Source: Chiloscyllium plagiosum (taxonomy: Eukaryota). Taken from it: a stretch of 20,000 bases of DNA. The translations under genes were made by a program, and so were the position numbers. Positions 4,561 through 17,684 of this stretch are shown here, piece by piece; position 1 is the stretch's first letter; each line of letters starts with the position of its first letter. The stretch lies in contig NC_057717.1 in NCBI RefSeq assembly GCF_004010195.1, positions 107,526,762 to 107,546,761 of the forward strand. The letters run 5' to 3'. The notes below the pieces were generated by a model. That model made no database searches. It was not told the origin of the DNA and saw nothing but the letters and a program-made list of their open reading frames with translations.

Positions 4561-5056
4561 TGCCTGCCCCTCTTCCGCGGTTATGTTAGAGCCCGGGTGT
4601 CCTTGGAGAAGGAGCACGCGGTGTCGACCAACAGCCTGGAGTTGTTCAGGGAGAGGTGGGCGCCGCAGGGAGTGGAGTGCATCATTTCTCTCTCCAATTC
4701 TATTTTGATTTAGTCCCTACCCTCCCCTTCACTGTTTTGATCACACAGCACTGTCCCTTGATGTGAAGGGCAGTGCTTGTCACTGGCCACCCGGGTGTTT
4801 TCCTATCTTCCTGGTGGTGGAATTTGAATAAAGATTGGTGCACTTTGTGTCTTCCACTGTGTCTCACACCTGCACACACAAACCATGGGTGCTGGGGATA
4901 AAATAAGCACTACTGCACTTAGGTGGTAGTGTGGGGGAAAAAAAAAGAAAGAAAAAAAAACAGGAGTACCCCTACATCCACCATGGGTGCTGGGGATAAA
5001 ATAAGCACTACCAAAGAAAGAAAAAAAGAAGAAAAAAAAAATTAAAAAAAATAAAA
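4561..5056 (+). mobile_element. Young 5'-truncated Tx1/L1-clade non-LTR retrotransposon with poly(A) tail and 17-bp TSD
   Basis: Perfect TSD aataaagagataccact at 4544-4560 and 5057-5073. Intact ORF2 C-terminus CLPLFRGYVRARVSLEKEHAVSTNSLELFRERWAPQGVECIISLSNSILI* (4561-4713). CpGs are retained and the tail is A-rich. Confidence 0.8.
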
Positions 5057-5900
5057 AATAAAGAGATACCACTATGCTTTTTCAGTTCTACATCAGAGGT
5101 TCAGACCTAGATAACACACTTGCGTCTCCTGAATGGGACTTGAAACTATAACTTTCAAACCAAGTGGCAAGAGTCCAACAACTGAACCATAGCTGACACA
5201 TTCTAAACTACATTTGATGGAATTCTATGATATTTTGTGAAAATTGGAAACAGATTATGCACTTTAGCTTTGTTATGTTAGGCTTTTTTGTGCAGTGTAT
5301 TGTGAAGTAGGTCTTATTTGGTATGAATATTGAATGTTACAGTTGATTATAGTTGAGTATTTACTTGTTTGTTGAATCATTTGACAGAGATCCTGTGAAT
5401 CAAAAGTAGGATGAGGTATTTCCCAAAGGAAAAGGAAGAATTATTGGAATCATTATTTGTTGACCGGAATGGTTGAGGGTTGAGAGAGTGTCAGGCAGAT
5501 GTAAGGGGATTTTAAGTCTATAGAAAGTACAGTGGCTAAATGCACTGCCCACTCTGATAATTATTGATGTAAATCAAGTGTTCCCATGGTCAATATCTGT
5601 GCTCAGTTGGTGAATCAGGTCTCAGCAGTAGTGATGCTCCTTTGTCTTGGTGCCACATTTGGATGTGGTGGTCAGCAATTAAGTATTCTGTCATTGCCTA
5701 ACCTTAATTAAATAAAGGTCCTTTGTACAAGGCTCCAGAAAGCTGCAAGTATCGAAGAATAATATTCCATAAGTGGTCAGCACCTTCAGGAGAGGAGAAA
5801 ATTGAGTGAAAAGGAAATAAATTACTTTGAGATAAAGTATTACCAATAAGCACAATCCTATTGATTAATCACTAAGCTAAAAAAAAGTTAGATATCAGAA

Positions 5901-6389: not shown

Positions 6390-6738
6390 ATGGGGCATGG
6401 ACAGGATAAATAGACAAAGTCTCTTCCCTGAGGTGGACGAGTCCAGAAGTAGAGAGCATAGGTTTAGGGTGAGAGGAGAAAAATATAAAAGACCTAAGGG
6501 GCAATTTTTTCACGCAGAGGGTGGTATGTGTATGGAATGAGCTGCCAGAGGAAGTGATGGTGGCTGGTACAGTTGCAACATTTAGAAGGCATCTGGATGG
6601 GTATATGAATAGGAAGGGTTTGAAGGGGTATGGACCATTTGCTGGCAAGTGGGACTAGATTAGGTTAGGATATCTGGTCGGCATGGACGAGTTGGACAAA
6701 ACGGTCTGTTTACATGCTGTACACCTCTGCGACTCTAT
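6390..6738 (+). mobile_element. 5'-truncated CR1 LINE 3' end
   Basis: ORF2 C-terminus (GNFFTQRVVCVWNELPEEVMVAGTVATFRRHLDGYM) followed by a CR1 3' UTR ending gactctata. Confidence 0.9.
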
Positions 6739-6983
6739 AACAAGTCATACCACATCTATGGAATTAACAGTGAAGTTTACATTGAAGTTTATGCCAATAT
6801 GTCTTTATTTAGATGTTGCCTGACCTGCTGAGTGATTTCAGCATTTATTGTTTCAAATTCCAACTATCTTTAAATGTTTTGGTTTCTTAACCATCTTTTA
6901 CAATCATATACCTGCTTCATGTTGTTGTAGTATGTTGTTCATTGTTTAATTGATGTTCATTCTAACATTTTGTTTATTTTCAG

Positions 6984-7175
6984 ACTTAGAAGATGAAAAG
7001 TTGAGGCAGGCTAGTAAGCACCACAACCTTGAACATGAACGTGAGCATGAACGTGAACATGAACATAGACATGAACATAAACATGAGCATAGACATGAGC
7101 GTGAACATGGACCTACTATTGAGCATAATAATTATTGGATAGTTGGGCAAAGACGCTTCAGAATGATTGTTATCA
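6984..7175 (+). CDS. Internal coding exon (192 nt, phase 1-1) encoding a His/Glu-rich repeat segment of a single-pass membrane protein
   Basis: Acceptor ttttgtttattttcag| with upstream branch-like tctaac, and donor |gtgagt at 7176. Open frame (D)LEDEKLRQASKHHNLEHEREHEREHEHRHEHKHEHRHEREHGPTIEHNNYWIVGQRRFRMIVI. The phase matches the next exon. Confidence 0.8.
7031..7108 (+). repeat. Coding hexamer tandem repeat, 13 units (GAACAT variants)
   Basis: gaacat gaacgt gagcat gaacgt gaacat gaacat agacat gaacat aaacat gagcat agacat gagcgt gaacat, encoding EH/ER/RH/KH dipeptides. Confidence 0.95.
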
Positions 7176-7629
7176 GTGAGTAATAAAGAAGGTGGTAACT
7201 ATGAAAATTCCTTACAGCTCCACCAATGTTCATTAAATCTATTAAACAAATAACTGGCCATCACACTGCTGAAAGATCCTAAGTTTGATTTCCAATGGAC
7301 CTTGTTTTTCCATTGTTGAGTGAATCAGGGGTTCCAATAATAAGGGAACAGAGTATCAACAAATAAATGTAAAATATCTCTGAAGGCAATTCAGTGGCTG
7401 CTTCTTCCTCCGAGACAGCCAACCATCAGTGTTTACCACTGCAAATTTCAACTTCCATCCTGGCACAACCCCCAGTAGAGACTAAGCCATTCACCCACCC
7501 TTCATGTGCACTTAACTCTACAGGTAAAAAGGTTCTTGATGGAGGATGTTCTGATTAACCTACTGACTTTACATTTCAATGGAAAATCCATCCTAACATC
7601 TTGATGAATTTGAGGAATTGGTGTGAGGA

Positions 7630-8045
7630 TGGATGTGTTGTCCCAATCAAAGTGGTGTCCTTCTTCATCTGTATATAAGGATACTAGTGATGGTGGGTCA
7701 TGTCTTTTCGTGGCTGGTTGGTGGCCTGTCTGATGTAGTGTTCATTACAGTCCTCGCATGGTATTTTGTAAATGACATTTGTTTTGCTGATTGTTTGTAA
7801 AGGGTCCTTTAGGTTCACCAGCTGCTGTTTAAGTGTGTGGGCTACCATGATGCCAAGGGGTCAGAGTAGTCTGGTAGTCATCTCCAAGATGTCTTTGATG
7901 TATGGTAATGTGGCTAGAGATTCTGGGTGTGTTACGTCTGCTTGTCTGGGTTTGTTGTTTAGGAATCGGCGGATTGTGTTTATTGGGTAACCGTTATTCT
8001 TGAATAAGCTGTATAGGTATTTTTCATCTGCTGCTCATAGAACTA
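7630..8045 (-). mobile_element. Penelope-like retroelement fragment (RT C-terminus/linker and GIY-YIG endonuclease)
   Basis: Minus-strand translation YLYSLFKNNGYPINTIRRFL...TLPYIKDILEMTTRLL*PLGIMVAH...LKDPLQTISKTNVIYKIPCEDCNEHYI...GHHFDWDNTSIL matches the PLE motifs NGYP, LPY and VIY-IPC-C---YI. Confidence 0.85.
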
Positions 8046-8351
8046 CGAGCAATACAGCCTTATCCAATGTATCCACTTTACTAATTTTGAAAGTCTTTAA
8101 TGATTGAATTTCCTCCTCTGTCATCATGGTCTGTATAGCATCAGTTGCATTTATATCTGCAAGTGTATTTTACCAGGGTTTTAGTGTTCATGTACCCCAA
8201 TCTTTCACTTAGACACACATTTATCCATGATTAAAGAATCAAAACCAGCTTTTTTAATTCCAATGGCAAGATTTAGGAATCTAGTATACTATCAGGATAA
8301 GGAGCCTTATTAAACAATGAAGTTTTGTACACTTAGAGCACACTAAGTGTG

Positions 8352-9190
8352 CTTAGGCAGAGAGTTGGGATAAAAGGTTCTTTTTCGGAATGGCAGCCGG
8401 TGACAAGCGGTGTCCCGCAGGGTTCAGTGTTGGGGCCGCAGCTGTTCACATTATATATTAATGATCTGGATGAAGCGACTGGGGGCATTCTAGCGAAGTT
8501 TGCTGATGATACAAAGTTAGGTGGACAGGTGGAGAGGAAGTGGGGAGGCTGTAGAAGGATCTAGACAGTTTGGGAGAGTGGTCCAGGAAATGGCTGATGG
8601 AATTCAATGTGAGCAAATGCGAGGTCTTGCACTTTGGAAAAAAGAATACAAGCATGGACTACTTACTAAACAGTGAGAAAATTCGTAAAGCCAAAGTACA
8701 AAGGGATCTGGGAGTGCTCGTCGAGGATTCTCTAAAGGTAAACATGCAGGTTGAGTTCGTGATTAAGAAAGCGAATGCAGTGTTGTCATTTATCTCAAGA
8801 GGGTTGGAATATAAAAGCACCGTTGTGCTACTGAGACTTTATAAAGCTCTGGTTAGGCCCCATTTGGAGTACTGTGTCCAGTTTTGGTCCCCACAGGACC
8901 CGTGGACACAGCCTTAGAATTAGAGGGGATAAATTCAGAACAGAAATGCAGAGGCATTTCTTCAGCCAGAGACTGGTGGGCCTGTGGAATTCATTGCCGC
9001 AGAGTGCAGTGGAGGCCGGGAGCTAAATGTCTTCAAGGCAGAGATTGATAAATTCTTGATGTCACAAGGAATTAAGGGCTAGGGGGAGAATGCGGGTAAG
9101 TGGAGTTTGAAATGCCTATCAGCCATGATTGAATGGTGGAGTGGACTCGATGGGCCGAATGGCCTTACTTCCACTTCTGTGTCTTAATGT
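8352..9190 (+). mobile_element. 5'-truncated CR1 LINE (RT to 3' tail, with an internal deletion near 8895)
   Basis: [53 protein letters not shown], and 3' tail gggccgaatggcct. Confidence 0.93.
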
Positions 9191-9331
9191 ATGCTCTTTC
9201 ATTATTAAGAATATTTTGATTATTCCTTTGTTTACTAACATGTCTACTCTGTGCATTTATCAGATTCAGGGTTTACCTATTTCTAGATTTAAGTCCCTTG
9301 TTGTGATTTCTTTCTCTCTTTTTATTTACAG

Positions 9332-9422
9332 TTATTTTAGCTGTTATCGTGAGTTTTATTGTATTGTTGATATTGACCTGGTTCCTTCTTCCAAAAAAGA
9401 ATGTAAAGAAAGTAAAGAAAAC
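9332..9422 (+). CDS. Internal coding exon (91 nt, phase 1-2) encoding a transmembrane helix and a basic stop-transfer segment
   Basis: Strong acceptor tttctttctctctttttatttacag| and donor |gtaagt at 9423. In frame with the 6984-7175 exon it reads (I)ILAVIVSFIVLLILTWFLLPKKNVKKVKK(T). This frame is not in the supplied ORF track. Confidence 0.85.
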
Positions 9423-9589
9423 GTAAGTCTCCTACACGTATATTATACACACCCATTTTTAACTTGGTACTCTTCCAAAAAATACAGAATTGTGCAGTAG
9501 CAAATTCGTACTGTTAAGCCATTTAAAAAAATTGTCACTGGCCAGAGGTCACCTTTAATCACAAATTTCCCAAAGAGCGTTTAAGTGTC

Positions 9590-9755
9590 AATGAGATGGT
9601 TTTTCACATGATTACATGGTCACCATTCAGCTCACTTTTTATTCCAGATTTTTATTGAATTCAGATTTCACCATCTGCCATGGTGGTATTTGAGCCTATG
9701 CATCTAGAACATTGGATTCTGGATTGTTAGTCCACCACTACACCACCACCTCCTT
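9590..9755 (-). mobile_element. tRNA-derived SINE head fragment
   Basis: The reverse complement reads ggaggtggtggtgtagtggtggactaacaatccag...ggctcaaataccaccatggcagatggtgaaatctgaattcaataaaaatctggaataaaaag. Same family as about 14990-15245. Confidence 0.65.
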
Positions 9756-10419
9756 GTGAGATTCATTAAACGTATACAAATGCATGGAAATAAAGATAAT
9801 TGCTGTTCATTAGTAAGATTCTGAAGGGGAACATCAACATTTTTTTACTTGATGTTTAGAATCTGATTTTTTTTCACTTTCATTGTATCTTCCCACATTT
9901 CTCACCGTTGCCCAGGGAACTCAAAAGAAATTGAAAAGCCCACCCAATTTATAAGCTCCTATTATGCCCCCTTTAAAGGCAAATCCATGTGCAGTGATCA
10001 GTTAACTATACTGAAGAATATAACATTTTCAGAGCCATCATAACCTTTCTTTGGAGCACAACCTTTGCTCACTGCAGCGTAATGTTCAACGTATGAATCT
10101 GAACCTGTGTTAGTTATCATGCTCTGTTGTTCTCCCCTTCTAAATCAGAAGGAATGACTGGTCTACTGTCACTCTTGCATTGGAACCCCAGCACTGACCA
10201 TTCAACAGGGACCTAACTTCTTTATTGGCAACTTGTTTGGGTTCCATTTGCTGTGGGTGTGTTTGGTCTGTGATTAACTGCATTTGTACAGTAATAAATT
10301 GTTCTTTGATAATAGGTTACGTTATAGGTTACTTTGTTCACCTGTTGTTTACTTTAATCTTCCATTTTAGAAAACATTTTTGTTTTGATGACATTTGGTG
10401 TGAGACTTTTGACTTAAAA

Positions 10420-13400
10420 TTAATTGATCGCACACATTCAAGTGAATAAATATGATCCGGCAACCATTTCAGAAACATGGCTAAAGTATGACAAAAATTG
10501 TAATCAGAATAATGAGAGATGTTCGATTTGCAAGGAAATTAGTAAGTTAGGTAAAGGTGGAGAAGTTACAGTGTTAATCAAGGAAGACATTTGTGTAACA
10601 GTTAAAGGTGATCTCAGTTTAGGAGATCAGGATTAGAATGGGGTTGGATGGAGAGGGGAAATAGTATGGGGAAGATGTCACCAATGGGAATGGTCTACAT
10701 GCCCTCTTAGAGTAACCACAACGTGGGATAAGATATACAAGAAGAAATTCTGGTGTTTGTGATAAAGGGAAGGCGATAATCAAGGATGACTTTAATCTAA
10801 ACAGGAAACATCAGATTAGCATTGGTACCCCGGATGAGGAATTCATGGAAAGGTTTTTAAATAGTTTCTTAGAGCAGCATTTTCTGGAGGCAACCAGAGA
10901 GCAGGTTAAATTATTGTGTGATGCAACAGTATTAATTATTAACCTCAGAGTAAAGCTACCTGTAACTATCAATAACTGTACTACTACTGAATTTTACTTT
11001 CAGTTTGAAAGGGAGAAAATTAGGTCTATGACCTAGTATTTTAAACCTAAATAAGGGCAACTACATAGACATGGAAACTGAGCAAGCTGAAGCAAACTGG
11101 CATACTAGGCTAGAGGATAGATGAATGGGATACAGTGGCAAGCATTTAAGGGGATATTTCAGAATATTTAGAATACTTACGTTCCTACTATATTGAACAA
11201 TACTAAAGGGAGGACCAACTATCTGTGATTAACTAAAGAAGTTAAGGAAAGCATCAAACCTGAGGAAAAATGTATAAGGGTGAAGGAACCTTCGATGACA
11301 AGAGATGTGGAGTGTCGAGTCAAGAGGAAGAAGGAAGCTTTCTTAAGGTTAAAGAAGCAAGGATCAGACAGCGCTCTAAAGGGTTATAAGGTAGCCAGAA
11401 AGGAACTGAAGGATGGACTTAGGATAGCTAGATGGGGACATGAAAAATCTTTAGCATGTAGGATTAAGGAAAATCCCAAGCCGTTCTACACTTAGGTGAA
11501 GAACAAGAGGATGGCCAGTGTGAAGGTAGGGCTGATCAGGGGTAGTGAAAGTAACTTGTGCTTAGAGTCGGAGAAGCTAGGGGAGGTCCTTAATGAATAC
11601 TTTGCTTCAGTATTCACTAGTGAGAGGGACATTGTTGTTTGTGAGGACAGCATGAAACAGGCTGATATGCCTAAACAGGTTAATGTTAAGAATGAGGATG
11701 TGCTGGAAATCTTGAAAAACATGAACCAGACAGGATGTACCCAAGGTTACTACAGGAAGCAAGAGAAGAGATTGCTGTGCCTTCGTCGATGATCTTTGCG
11801 TTCTCAATGTTCACTGGAGTAGTACCAGATGATTGGAGTTAGCAAATGTTAATCTTTTGTTCAAGAAAGGGAATTGGGATAACCCCAGGAATTACAAACC
11901 AGTCAGTCTTAAGTCACTGGTGGGCAAGTTATTGGAGAGGATTCTGAGGGACAGTATTTATGATTACTTGAAAAAGCATTGTCTGATTAAAGATAGTCAG
12001 CATGGTTTTGTGAGTGGCAGGTTGTGCCTCACAAGCCTTATTGAATTCTTGGAGCATGTGACAAAACACATTGATGAAGGTAGAGCAATGCATGTTGTGT
12101 GTATGGATTTTAGCAAGCATTTGATCAGGTTCCCCATGGTAGGCTCATTCAGAAAGTAAGGGATGCATGGGATACAGGGAAATTTGGCTGTTGATTCTGG
12201 CTTATAGAATACAGTGAGTGGCAGTAGATGGAAAGTATTCAGCCCAGAGCTTGATGTCCAATGGTGTTCCACAAGGGTCTGTTCTGAGACATCTGCTGTT
12301 TGTGACTTTTATAAATGACTTAGATGAGGAAGTGGAAGGGTGGGTTAGTAAGCTTGCAAATGACACGAAGATTGGTGGAGTTGTGGATAGTGTGGAGGGC
12401 TGTTGTCGGTTGCAACAGGACACTGACAGGATGCAGAGCTGGGCTGAGAAGTGGCAGATCGAGTTCAACCTGAAAAAGTGTGAAGTGATTCATTTTGGAA
12501 GGTCAAATTTGAATGCAGATTACAGGGTTAAAGGCAGGATTCTTGGCAGTGTGAAGAACAGGTTCTTAGGGTCCACGCCCATAAGATCCCTCAAAGTTGC
12601 CACCCAAGTTGTTAGAGTTAAGAAAGCATACGGTGTGTTGGCTTTCAGTAGGAGGGGGATTGAGTTTAAGAGCTGCAGGCTATGCTGCAGCTCTATAAAA
12701 CCCTGGCTAGACCACACTTGGAATATTGTGTTCAGTTCTGGTTATTTCATTATAGGAAGAATGTGGAAGCTTTAGAGAAGGTGCAGAGAAGATTTACTAA
12801 GATGCTGCCTGGACTGGAGGGAATGTCTTATGAAGAAAAGTTGAGGGAGCTAGGGCTTTTCTTATTGGAGTGAAGAAGGATGAGAGGTGACTTGATAGAG
12901 GTGTACACGATAATGAGAGGCATAGATAGAGTGGATAGCTAGAGACTTTTTCCCTGGGCGGAAATGGCTCTCACAGTGGGGGGCATGATTTTGAAGTGAT
13001 TGAAGGGAGGTTTAGGGGAGATGTCAGAGGTAAGTTCTTTACAAAGAGAGTGATTGCATTGTGAAATGCATTGCCAGCATTGATAGTAGAGTCAGATACA
13101 TTTGGGACATTTAAGGAACTCTGGGATAGGCACATGGATGATAGTAAAATGTATGGGATGTAGGTTAGTTTGATATTAGAGAAGGATAAAAGGTCAGCAC
13201 AACATCGAGGGCCGAAGGGCCTGTATGTGCTGTACCGTTCTATCTTCTATGTGCAAAGATGAATGGTTAGAATATATCCAATGGCTGAGAATGACTGAAA
13301 ATTTAATGATGAGAGGAATCTAGCTAGGAATGTCAAAGCAGATAGGAAGAATTTCCACATATATTTTAAAAAGGAAAGTGTCAGTAAAGTAAATGTTGGT

Positions 13401-14345
13401 CCTCTGCAGAGTGAGAATGGGGAGATAATAGCAAATAACAAGGAAGTGGTGGGTGATATGAACAAATATTTTGTTTCTGTCTTCAGTAGAGGTTTCAAAA
13501 ACATTACAATAATAATTTCAAATCAGGAGATGGAAAGGGGAGAGAAACTTAGCAAAAGTACAATTACAAGAGGAGCAGTATAATGCAAATTGATGGAGTT
13601 GAAGGCTAATAAGCCTCTGGGTCCAGAGGAACTTCATCCTATGGTCTTAAAAGTGATAACTAGTGAGGATGTAAATGCATAGGTGTTAATTTTTCTGAAA
13701 TTCCCTAGAAAGTTTCCTTCAGGCTGGAAATAAACATACATAACCTCTCTATTCAAGAATGGAGCAATACAGAAAACTGGAAATATTGTAGGCCAGTTAG
13801 CTTGATCTCTGTCATGGAAGTTGTTAAAATCGATCCATAAAGAGATTATGGCTCTACGCTTAGAAAATCTTGAGGTAATCAGGAAGAATTTGTGTGGTTT
13901 GTCAAAGGGAAATCCTGTAGAATGATTTTATTGGAGTTCTTTGAAGGAATAAAATGCACTGTGAATAAAGGGGAGCCTGTGGACATACTATAGCTGGATT
14001 TCCAGAAGGCTTTTGCTAAAGTGCAATATTAAAACCTTTTGGGTAAAATACAAGCTGATAGTGTTGCAGTAATATTGTTACATGGATGGCTGGCAAAAAA
14101 CAGAGTATACATAGATTGATCTCTCTAATTGGTAGAATGTAACAAGTGGAGTCCTGCTGCTATCCTTGCTGGGGCCTCAACATCAGGACAACATTGATTA
14201 CTTAAGTGAAGGGAGCAAAGGCATGGTAGCTATATTCACAGACAACACCAACATAGATTGAAAAGTATGTTGTGAAGAAGTCAAAAAGAAGTTACAGGGG
14301 ACTATAGATAAAATGAGTCAGTGGACAAAAATCTGGCAGACTGAG
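10420..14345 (+). mobile_element. Old, heavily decayed CR1 LINE (endonuclease to RT), split by a younger CR1 at about 11276-13250
   Basis: APE motifs ISETWLK and GKGGEVTVLIK, plus DFNL at about 10790. It resumes at about 13250 with NKYFVSVFS, a GPEELHPMVLK-like motif, LDFQKAFAKV and SQWTKIWQ. Confidence 0.8.
11276..13250 (+). mobile_element. Younger 5'-truncated CR1 LINE nested in the older CR1
   Basis: [77 protein letters not shown], and 3' tail gggccgaagggcctgt...ttctatcttctat. Multiple frameshifts. Confidence 0.93.
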
Positions 14346-15245
14346 TCTTATGTTTTGGTCTCTCTGACCAATATTGTCATGGCCAGATACATCTGCAGCA
14401 GGTGGATTGGTGAGGATCAGGTCAAAGATGTTTTTGCCTCTGTTGGTTCCTTCACATCCAGCCACAGACCCAGTCTAGCAGCTAAGTCCTTTAGACTCAA
14501 TTAGCTTGGTCATGGGTACTGCTGCTGAGTCACTTGTGATGCTGGACATGGAAATCCACCGGGCAGAATACATTCTACACTTTTACCACTCTCAGTGCTT
14601 CCTCCAACTGATGGTGACCACGGAGGAGTACTGATTCATCAGCCAAAGGAGAATATTATGTAGTAATCAGCAGGAATTTCCCTTGAATATGTTTGACCCA
14701 AAGGTATTATATTTCATGGGGCCCAATGTTAAGGACTGCCAAAGCAATTTCCTTCTGAATGTATCCCACTGTGCCACCACCTCTGCTGGGTCAGCCCTGC
14801 CTGCAGGAAAGGACCCCTCCCAATTTTGGTACTCATCCCCAGATGTTGTAAGGAGGACTTTTTTCGCTGGCAGGGCTGAGTTTCCTATTGTCGTTTCCAA
14901 TGCTTCGGTTGACACCAGGTGGTCATTCTGACTTCATCCCTTTTCTGAAACTTCTTAGTGGTTGATAAACTACTGATGGATTCTTAGGTCATTTCAGATA
15001 GCAGTTAAGTGTCAACCACATTGCTGTAGGTCAGGAGTCAAATGTAGACTAGACCAGGTAAGGACTTGTCCTTCCCAAAAGGGGCATCAGTGGACCAGAT
15101 GGATTTCTATGGCGGTGGGTTCCCAGTCATCATTAGACTTTTAATTCCAAGAATTTATTGAATTGTTGTGGTGGGATTCAAACCAAAGCATTATTTGCAT
15201 TGCTGGACTAATAGTCCAGTGGCAATAGCACAACATCACTACTTA
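14346..15245 (-). mobile_element. 5' part of a LINE: tRNA/SINE-like head followed by a decayed APE endonuclease domain
   Basis: The minus strand gives decayed VKHIQGKFLLITT..SPLADESVLL, DFHVQH (GDFN-like), KDLAARLGL..VKEPT and a terminal SDH-like motif near 14355. The head at about 14990-15245 matches the SINE at 9590-9755. Confidence 0.7.
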
Positions 15246-16112
15246 CTTCTTAGAAACACGTGAGGGAAATCCCCAGCTTCGACTGTTGTTACTGGTGATG
15301 ACATACCTGACCATTTGCAAATTGACATTTACATCTGTGATGGGCATAAAACTGACAAGAACAATCCACGTCTTTTGAATCTCCCTTGTCACTTCTATAT
15401 TCAGTTAACAATATGTGATCGTCCTTAGACTGTTGTTCACTGATACTTTCTCTTAGTATACAGTACTCCCTAGCAACCTGTAAATCAGTCTTAAGAATTA
15501 ATTTTCTTGCTCATTTTTAGTTTTTGTTTAACCTCCTATTTCTTAGCCATAGCTGTGTTTGCATTGGCACACATGTAAAATTGCTGATGCCACAGGAATG
15601 CTGTTACATTAGCATCTGTTTACCTTGGATCCATAGTTTTAAATCAGTCGCTTCTTTTAAACAGGGCTTTTTCTCCTTTTCCTAACAGCTGTTCTAATTG
15701 TGGGATCATTTGATCCTTATTTTGATTCTTATTATTTCTTATACCATAATCCTGAGTAGGACAGAAATAAGTGCTAAATGTCAAGAGATGTCTCCCTTCC
15801 GCTGATTTCCATATTTTACTTTTGATTTTTCCTTCAGTAAAAGTAATATCACAGTGAAACCAGTTACTACTTTCATTCAACATTGAGACTGCAACATGCT
15901 AATTTTCCATTGGGATGCAAGCAAACTTTTTTTGTATTGTGAAATGTGTTTTGCTTTGATGCCTATCTGTCTGATCGTTAGTCTATCTCTTGTGATACAA
16001 TTTTTTAATTATTTTACTTTTTTAATAGTTTACAAATCAAATGTCTGGTCTTTTTATCTTGTTCTGCTAGTTTGTCAGAAATTACAAGGTTGTTTAATAT
16101 ATTGAAGATGTT

Positions 16113-16355
16113 AATTTCATTTAGTTCTTGATTATGGAATTAACCTAAGAAATAACCTTGGAGCCAATTTTCATATAAAGGCTAATATTACACTTTTATG
16201 TCTTCCCTTCACCCTTGATTTCAGTCATGAGTGATGGCTGATGTATGGTCAAGTTGTCGATAAACAAAATATTTTTGCCATTAATGTTAGCAAGACCAAT
16301 CTATGCTGTTCAGACCCTGCTAGAAATTTCATTTAGTTCTTGATTATGGAATTAA
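16113..16355 (+). repeat. ~189-bp copy of 17497-17684 flanked by perfect 31-bp direct repeats
   Basis: aatttcatttagttcttgattatggaattaa at 16113-16143 and 16325-16355. Segment 16143-16331 matches 17497-17684 with about 8 differences. Confidence 0.95.
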
Positions 16356-16480
16356 TTTGAGAATTAATTACTGAAATTAACCTAATCAAAACAAATAAAT
16401 GTTGTTCTCACAAGTATATGTGTGAGCCAAAGTTGAATTCTCAAATTGAAAATTAAAAGAGAATTATTATTTTAAAAAAA

Positions 16481-16547
16481 AGGGTATGATATAAATATAC
16501 ATCAATGTTTTCAGCTTCAAACCTGATGTGTATTTATATCATACCCT
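16481..16547. repeat. Inverted repeat: 24-bp stem with a 19-nt spacer
   Basis: agggtatgatataaatatacatca (16481-16504) pairs with tgatgtgtatttatatcataccct (16524-16547), with one U-G wobble on the + strand RNA. Confidence 0.95.
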
Positions 16548-17381
16548 GTTTTTGACAGATTGATGATCAGGTTGATGTACAGTTTTAGATTCCTCAAAGT
16601 GCTTCATTTACATTAGATCTTTCAAATTTTGCCTTTGCAAGCAACTAACTTCAAAAAATGTTGCTCAAAACTTTAATTTATCAAGACGTCATCTCAAACC
16701 ATGTTTATACAATTTCATAGCTGGTCAGTTTAATTTCTGCTTTCTTTAAATTGGAGTTTCACTGCCAGGGAATATTATCCATTCAAACAGATATTGATAC
16801 ATTGTGCTTCTTGCTATCAACCTTGTCTACTGGTTGGTTTCATCATTGAGATGGTCAAAGCTAGAATGAAGTTGAGCTATGCACATTTTATCTGACTTCC
16901 TGCTGTTCCTAATAAACGGAATCTTAACTGGCAAATTAGGACTTTTAACTGCAAGCTTCAAAATTACAGCTTTTAAGACCTTAATAAAACTAGTTGAATA
17001 CTTTGAATATTTCTTCAATTAAAACCTAATTGTGATATATTATTTGGTCAGTCATGTATTTCTGGCTATTTGCTAATTCTGGAACAAAATTTATTATATG
17101 TGAGTAATTAAAAAACAGATAAATCAAGATGGTTTCAAATTTGCAATGATTGTATAAGATGGTGTCTTGCTGGCTAATGACAATGAATATAATATGAAAT
17201 TAATCTATAGGTGTTCTAGTTACCCATAAAAAGAACTATCTAGGCTTGCTTACAGTCAGTGCTGCTGATCCATTAATTTTCTAAGTGTAAAGTATACCTT
17301 CTATATTTGTGAAGTCTTTTTTTTTTAACAAATTTACACACCAGCATGTTCACTCAAAATCATATTTCTGTTATATTTCAG

Positions 17382-17410
17382 AAGTGGCAAAAAATGACAA
17401 CATAAATGAG
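17382..17410 (+). CDS. Small candidate exon (29 nt) of the same gene; reads TSGKK* if joined to the TM exon
   Basis: Acceptor tttctgttatatttcag| and strong donor GAG|gtgagt at 17411, in non-repeat sequence. The phase-2 reading is (T)SGKK-stop; the phase-1 reading xVAKNDNINE is open. Confidence 0.55.
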
Positions 17411-17496
17411 GTGAGTGATCTACGTTAGAGATATTTAAAAACTGTGACTCTAGGCATTGATTCCAGGTGGGCCTGTAATTTTCAATATTAAGCTGT

Positions 17497-17684
17497 ACCT
17501 AAGAAATAACCTTGGAGCCAATTTTCATATAAAGGCTAATTTACACTTTTATGTCTTCCCTTCACCCTTGATTTCAATCGTGAGTGATGGCTGATGTATG
17601 GTCAAGTTGTGGATAAACAAAATATTTTTGCCATTAACATTAGCAAGACCAATCTATGCTGTTCAGCCCCTGCTAGAGATTTCA
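17497..17684 (+). repeat. Second (probable donor) copy of the duplicated 188-bp segment
   Basis: About 96% identical to 16143-16331 by manual comparison, and lacks the 31-bp flanking repeats. Confidence 0.95.

Follow-up and report, generated by a model that had tools for sequence, protein, structure and literature searches.

The histidine-rich loops of ZIP transporters bind Zn2+, and the octarepeats of the prion protein and the sarcoplasmic-reticulum histidine-rich Ca-binding protein are examples of disordered, repeat-encoded, histidine-rich regions, lumenal or extracellular, that bind divalent metal. Here we describe a histidine-rich tract placed beside a single transmembrane (TM) helix, in the product of LOC122552459 of the shark Chiloscyllium plagiosum. 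The last three coding exons of this gene, called exons A, B and C below, lie in a 20,000-nucleotide stretch of contig C8 (NC_057717.1; the window, G000:C8:107526762-107546761). An earlier note, made from the letters of the window, had proposed here the end of a hidden spliced gene for a single-pass membrane protein with a His/Glu-rich juxtamembrane repeat.

Identity and layout of the gene

A protein search with exon A gave seven matches at E <= 1 among 209 longer candidates. The top two show 100% identity over 100% of the exon and are the NCBI isoforms of LOC122552459 in C. plagiosum, X2 (P0003, 258 amino acids) and X1 (P0004, 290 amino acids), each annotated as an "uncharacterized protein". 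The C-termini of both models hold the peptides of exons A and B, the translation of exon C supplies their final residues, and exact-match placement of P0004 puts residues 192-255 at 6983-7174 and residues 257-286 at 9334-9423. On this sequence evidence, the feature is the end of a real, already annotated gene. Since a public model exists, with the exact protein present in NCBI/UniRef as both isoforms, the gene is not hidden. As a rule, the NCBI pipeline gives multiple isoforms only with transcript alignment support.

Apart from the word "hidden", the reconstruction in the earlier note reads well against the DNA: the three exons lie between AG and GT sites where it had placed them, it has the phases right (1-1, 1-2 and 2-), and the translated pieces match those it quoted (Table 1). 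In isoform X1 numbering these are exons 7, 8 and 9 of nine. Exon A codes residues 192-255 and the first base of codon 256, and so contains the acidic DLEDEK segment, the His/Glu tract, the NNYW juxtamembrane motif, RRFR and the start of the TM helix. Exon B, directly preceded by CTTTCTCTCTTTTTATTTACAG, codes the remainder of the helix (to 9390) and then the Lys-rich tail (from 9391). Exon C, directly preceded by TTTCTGTTATATTTCAG, completes codon T286 in the frame carried over from exon B and codes SGKK before a TGA stop at 17394-17396. A strong consensus donor, GTGAGT, stands at 17411, 14 bases past the stop codon. A further 3' untranslated region (UTR) exon is therefore likely, so that the 3' UTR would be spliced with at least one exon beyond 17410; no exon was identified downstream of this donor. 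A stop codon this near that putative junction would be too close to it for nonsense-mediated decay.

The open frame of exon A alone is weak evidence for coding, because two opposite-strand frames across the hexamer repeat within it are open too. It is splice sites and conservation that carry the weight, and together they put the case for a gene well beyond what chance would give at the level of sequence. The earlier note had argued that a hydrophobic helix formed only across the 7175/9332 junction was unlikely to arise by chance, and this helix is kept in 7/7 aligned shark sequences. The note would have given up the gene if junction-spanning reads and frame-preserving conservation in relatives were both missing; orthologous proteins with this helix were found in 12 chondrichthyan species. 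Protein searches of the kind that it had proposed, made with exon A and with the full-length protein, recovered the exact public models together with chondrichthyan orthologues.

The N-terminal exons do lie outside the window, as had been supposed. Six more coding exons are found 3-42 kb upstream on the + strand, colinear with the protein, with starts on C8 at 107485120 (the start codon), 107491095, 107494446, 107496079, 107504970 and 107523418, and a span reaching 107523513. The gene thus has 9 coding exons over ~59 kb and stops ~95 kb short of the end of its contig, which is 107,641,581 bases long. The exon at C8:107523418 is a cassette exon present in isoform X1 only. All junctions from exon 1 through exon 7 are phase 1, and therefore skipping exon 5 or exon 6 keeps the frame: isoform X2 is without exon 6, and isoforms in other species are without exon 5 or without both. 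A PH(x)Y[E/Q] motif closes each of exons 4, 5 and 6, and in the chimaera protein an LPxPPPR..HVY module occurs twice in tandem; these repeated ends and tandem modules point to exon duplication. A search for a paralogue in the shark's own genome gave this locus only. One match on C29 (E 0.002) was considered as a paralogue and rejected, as it falls in a low-complexity repeat region with stops.

Protein architecture, conservation and distribution

The LOC122552459 protein (258-290 amino acids) comprises a hydrophobic leader, an ectodomain of ~225 amino acids, one TM helix and a Lys-rich tail. All species keep the leader (residues 7-20), which is modelled as a helix at residues 5-16. There is exactly one TM helix, the 24-residue segment 252-275 with a mean hydropathy of 3.64, and no other long hydrophobic helix besides the leader. 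The Lys-rich C-terminal tail that the earlier note had described is present, with 8 Lys in 15 residues. Leader, helix and tail together fit the putative type I single-pass topology that it had proposed, in which the leader may be cleaved. Within the tail, the tandem GTAAAGAAA copies of exon 8 add an extra VKK where the other sharks show a three-residue gap (alignment columns 301-319); this duplication is a second small slippage event within the gene.

In an AlphaFold2 model built with the 7-shark alignment the predicted local distance difference test score (pLDDT) averages 48.5, and 197 of the 290 residues score under 50; on this basis the ectodomain is predicted to be disordered. The sole confident modelled element is a helix at residues 242-274, with mean pLDDT values of 88 (residues 251-260) and 89 (residues 261-270). 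A helix modelled at low confidence, residues 189-214, extends into the His/Glu tract. Between residue 22 and the TM helix there are no cysteines in 8/13 sequences, and N-x-S/T sequons are absent from 10/13, C. plagiosum being included in both counts. An R-x-[KR]-R site occurs in the lumenal part of 9/13 sequences (RRKR at residues 81-84 in C. plagiosum), and the four sequences without the strict motif still have a basic cluster.

Histidine is abundant along the whole ectodomain, at 7.3-10.1% in 7 shark species and 6.7-8.6% in two isoforms from Narcine, and its density near the membrane varies between lineages. In the 50 residues before the TM helix, C. plagiosum, whose tract is the longest, has 13 His, against 7-10 for the other six sharks and 9 for Narcine; two skates have 5, and the chimaera has 4. 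Four histidines outside the repeat (H57, H108, H204 and H205) are invariant across the 7 sharks.

Conservation differs markedly by segment when measured as mean pairwise identity among the 7 shark sequences (Table 1), with the highest value in the juxtamembrane region and the first half of the TM helix. NNYW, G-Q-x-R-F-R-M-I and IIILAVIV are invariant in sharks, and an A-x-x-x-[G/S/C] pattern in the helix is found in 7/7 sharks and in Narcine. Strong conservation within a TM helix usually reflects helix-helix contacts, and we therefore infer from the strong conservation of the sequence here that the juxtamembrane/TM module is the functional core of the protein.

All relatives that we could detect belong to cartilaginous fishes. 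A near-length search with P0004 gave 17 matches at E <= 0.01 among 667 candidates, 17/17 from sharks (Chiloscyllium, Cetorhinus, Carcharodon, two Scyliorhinus, Pristiophorus and Heptranchias). A hidden Markov model (HMM) profile of the 7 sharks, run against 1,835,955,588 representative proteins, gave four matches at E <= 0.001, again all chondrichthyan: Heptranchias, the electric ray Narcine bancroftii, Chiloscyllium punctatum and the chimaera Callorhinchus milii. With ray and chimaera added, a word-seeded profile search gave 24 matches at E <= 1 among 8000 scored candidates, 24/24 chondrichthyan, and added the skates Leucoraja and Rhinoraja. The orthologues include LOC121271401 (Carcharodon), LOC119957214 (Scyliorhinus canicula), LOC144668998 (Cetorhinus), LOC129714397 (Leucoraja) and LOC103190215 (Callorhinchus), and they share the leader, the basic cluster, the PPxRMxPHVY, KHH and NNYW/RRFR motifs, the TM helix and the basic tail. 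All of these entries are models made automatically, and no function is assigned to any of them. As judged from these searches, the family is chondrichthyan-wide, present in sharks, rays, skates and chimaera, and undetectable elsewhere; such a distribution implies either a lineage-specific origin or fast divergence, and it agrees with the earlier suggestion that the protein is possibly lineage-specific. Pfam scans of P0001, P0002, P0004, P0005 and P0009 gave nothing at any cut-off, and PDB sequences gave no match to the family profile at E <= 1. The literature searched contained no mention of six of the family's locus names, and nothing on elasmobranch histidine-rich transmembrane proteins or on histidine-rich single-pass juxtamembrane zinc proteins.

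Several public models of the family depart from this pattern. The Rhinoraja model P0025 loses the TM helix after RRFRIIVL and continues in unrelated sequence, and the Chiloscyllium punctatum model P0021 ends past exon 4 with unrelated residues; both look mis-spliced. In the Pristiophorus isoforms P0006-P0008, which look mis-spliced too, an N-terminal insert (DDTKLGG...) is similar to reverse-transcriptase-derived open reading frames (ORFs) in the introns of the window (tblastn E 0.004-0.007), and this insert may be an exonised transposon fragment.

Table 1. Coordinates and properties of features in and around LOC122552459. Positions without a contig name are those of the window; identity is the shark mean described in the text.
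Feature	Position	Strand	Phase	Flanking signals or basis	Identity	Remarks
Exon A (coding exon 7 of 9)	6984-7175	+	1-1	pyrimidine tract and AG 6982-6983; GTGAGT 7176		
Exon B (coding exon 8)	9332-9422	+	1-2	AG 9330-9331; GTAAGT 9423		
Exon C (last coding exon)	17382-17410	+	2-	AG 17380-17381		29 nt
Degenerate (CATGAA)n array coding the His/Glu(Arg/Lys) tract	7019-7108	+				hexamer array in DNA
First part of TM helix (residues 252-255, start of 256)	7163-7175	+		structure model and hydropathy		
Two tandem GTAAAGAAA copies	9403-9420	+		direct sequence reading		9-base unit; tail-coding exon 8
Juxtamembrane and first TM half	residues 234-255				0.81	highest
Exon 5					0.77	
DLEDEK..KHH					0.75	
Rest of TM					0.69	
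Tail					0.57	
His/Glu tract					0.51	lowest
(CATGAA)n/TGAACA arrays	C36:28086201-28094575 (L003, L006-L008); C24:10544566-10544787; C60340, C35757, C12346, C10531					last four contigs unplaced
Decayed RVT_1 fragments in introns	8337-8564; 11833-12159; 12218-12775	+				
T/A-rich simple stretch	4932-5068					within low-complexity 4803-5081
SOUL heme-binding exon (PF04832, E 8.9e-10)	C8:107465955-107466182 (L025:955-1182)	+				~19 kb upstream of first exon
Choline-transporter-like gene (PF04515), three exons	C8:107636296-107641340 (L035:9535-9798, L036:1857-2282, L036:4358-4579)	+				90-95 kb downstream, toward contig end

A proposed mechanism and its alternatives

We consider it quite likely that the locus is best explained as an annotated chondrichthyan single-pass protein, for which we propose the following mechanism. 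The product would be a type I membrane protein in the secretory pathway. A furin-type convertase would probably cut it at the conserved polybasic cluster, freeing an N-terminal peptide of ~60 amino acids, and the protein would probably work by way of its conserved juxtamembrane/TM module, which would either bind a partner membrane protein or self-associate, the helix having the small-residue pattern described above. The ectodomain, rich in His and most extremely so in the repeat, may bind Zn2+, Ni2+ or Cu2+, or may respond to protonation near pH 6-6.5. A real metal- or pH-linked role of this kind is plausible, but it is weakened by a tract that is poorly conserved and made of repeats, and we lean slightly against it.

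Several observations weigh against this account as a whole. The strict R-x-[KR]-R motif is absent from Cetorhinus, Carcharodon and Narcine, with the basic cluster kept, and the small-xxx-small motif of the TM helix is not kept in the chimaera. The His tract is at once the least conserved segment and slippage-prone repeat DNA, and similar (CATGAA)n arrays occur elsewhere in the genome as non-coding DNA. Two of the sequencing runs are genomic DNA, with contigs unbroken across 6976-7622, 6713-7500, 9149-9556 and 17014-17526, and another yielded repeat-derived pieces only, none of the 8 pieces listed overlapping an exon. Neither 7175/9332 nor 9422/17382 is among the 15 read joints listed, to which 3248 more would have to be added, and these runs carry no information on expression; the splicing described here is thus read from the public gene models and from cross-species conservation.

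The repeat itself is the point at which the strongest alternative enters. It is possible, if rather doubtful, that the gene is real and that the His/Glu tract is itself without function, being a tolerated expansion of a (CATGAA)n microsatellite, read in the His-Glu frame, in a disordered spacer, while function resides in the TM/juxtamembrane module and the conserved PPxRMxPHVY motifs. The tract is indeed written in period-6 repeat DNA: TRF finds an array at 7030-7109 with period 6, 13.3 copies and 70% matches, and a super-unit of period 24 with 3.3 copies and 84% matches. Its length varies between species by up to ~12 residues, its identity of 0.51 is the lowest of any segment, and it is nearly lost in the skates (5 His) and the chimaera (4 His). 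The same hexamer also occurs in long arrays without a long open + strand frame on C36 and on unplaced contigs. The other genome matches to exon A all fall on the His tract, at 74-89% identity, within long hexamer arrays on C36, C24 and unplaced contigs. One C36 stretch (L003) has 286 hexamer copies in 1776 bases, and another (L007) has no open frame of >=120 amino acids on the + strand except frames crossing masked bases, from which it follows that this C36 array is non-coding. The arrays on C36, C24 and the unplaced contigs look as if they were related to the coding repeat but non-coding and similar to a satellite. The repeat in the gene is a slippage-prone, length-variable element that has expanded in C. 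plagiosum. Against a tract free of function, however, the alternating-His character is kept in 8/8 shark and electric-ray species despite differing residues, which would be unexpected from decay without selection or renewal. Against it stand also an ectodomain that is His-rich throughout (7.3-10.1% in sharks, 6.7-8.6% in Narcine) and the invariant histidines that lie outside the repeat.

A second alternative concerns the ancestry of the family. The protein may be orthologous to a named single-pass protein of bony vertebrates and have evolved so fast that the disordered ectodomain has diverged past detection by sequence, which we regard as unlikely. Disordered ectodomains are quick to change, the chimaera protein shares just 28-41% identity with the seven others aligned, and a protein atlas returned weak leads (0.76-0.84) to C2orf92-like, equatorin, TMEM154, PIANP, TMEM119 and syndecan clusters. 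All of these scores, however, are below 0.9 and so at the tool's lead-only level, the best being 0.84 for P0004 and 0.76 for the chimaera protein. The lead families have no Pfam match at E <= 1, two deep searches gave chondrichthyan proteins only, and the SOUL-family and choline-transporter-like neighbours of the gene suggest no syntenic candidate known to us. Equatorin/Afaf (PF15339), AJAP1_PANP_C (PF15298), TMEM154 (PF15102), TMEM119 (PF15724) and syndecan (PF01034) were accordingly set aside as candidates, with atlas scores of 0.76-0.80 and no Pfam match at E <= 1 for P0004, P0005 or P0009.

That there is no gene at all, only chance open frames in T-rich and repeat DNA with splice-like sites, deserves almost no credence: exon A is mostly hexamer repeat with several frames open on both strands, and T-rich sequence readily codes hydrophobic residues, but the exact match to public models, the six colinear upstream exons on the same strand and the orthologues from separate genomes of 12 chondrichthyan species, in which the TM helix likewise spans the junction, stand against it, and the cross-species conservation already contradicts it.

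Returning to the proposed mechanism, it is tempting to give the repeat a more specific part. The convertase-processed product of a lineage-restricted or extremely divergent family could use its juxtamembrane His/Glu repeat as a Zn2+- or pH-triggered switch on the effect that the conserved module exerts on a partner channel, transporter or receptor; alternating His would form i/i+4 pairs if the segment were helical. We think a switch of this precise kind quite improbable. If the His tract were functional, the locus would show how a coding microsatellite can tune a membrane protein that is sensitive to metal or pH; if it is not, LOC122552459 is one of many lineage-restricted uncharacterized loci. 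The biological yield is modest, as the gene model is already public. Nevertheless, raw sequence sufficed to reconstruct a real three-exon gene end in which a 2.2-kb intron divides the TM helix, and the family to which it belongs, with no name, domain or literature, pairs a TM module under strong conservation with a His tract that a repeat encodes and that differs in length between species.

Genomic setting and likeness to known systems

The surroundings of the gene were screened over 100 kb upstream and 95 kb downstream. Of 1420 ORFs, 719 were >=50 amino acids long, had <30% local-repeat cover and passed the complexity filter, and the 300 longest of these (>=67 amino acids) were scanned with Pfam. 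The matches among them were a SOUL-family exon, choline-transporter-like exons and reverse-transcriptase fragments only (Table 1). The SOUL-family exon likely marks the upstream neighbour gene. The choline-transporter-like exons are only distantly similar to human CTL1 in PDB (E 1.1e-5). A bony-vertebrate counterpart of the locus was not identifiable from the flank neighbours found among these 300 ORFs.

Within the window, 31% of the sequence is locally repeated, as measured by self-BLAST against the 195 kb of flanks. The RVT_1 fragments in the introns score 25.7-29.4 bits against a cut-off of 29.6 bits and represent 3/14 window ORFs scanned. The T/A-rich simple stretch upstream of exon A has extreme depth in the genomic runs, with reads seemingly cut there, and is probably a very abundant simple repeat.

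Among described proteins, the ZIP family (SLC39, PF02535) is like LOC122552459 in having an alternating HxHxH tract beside a membrane span, and PF02535 aligns weakly with the His-rich region of P0001 (residues 8-47) and of P0005 (residues 185-250). Membership was rejected: the alignments score 9 and 15.5 bits against a cut-off of 35.1 bits, and LOC122552459 has one TM helix and no multi-pass core, so that the resemblance is compositional only. Glycophorin A-type proteins (PF01102) offer a likeness of another kind, a single TM helix after an unstructured ectodomain, with a small-xxx-small motif in the helix of both. In the LOC122552459 family, however, this motif is absent from the chimaera member, and membership was again rejected, at 12.2 bits against a cut-off of 30.1 bits in P0009 only of three proteins scanned. 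The prion protein and the histidine-rich Ca-binding protein have no sequence relation to LOC122552459, with no profile match outside the family and no PDB match at E <= 1, and they are glycosylphosphatidylinositol-anchored or soluble, whereas LOC122552459 is single-pass.

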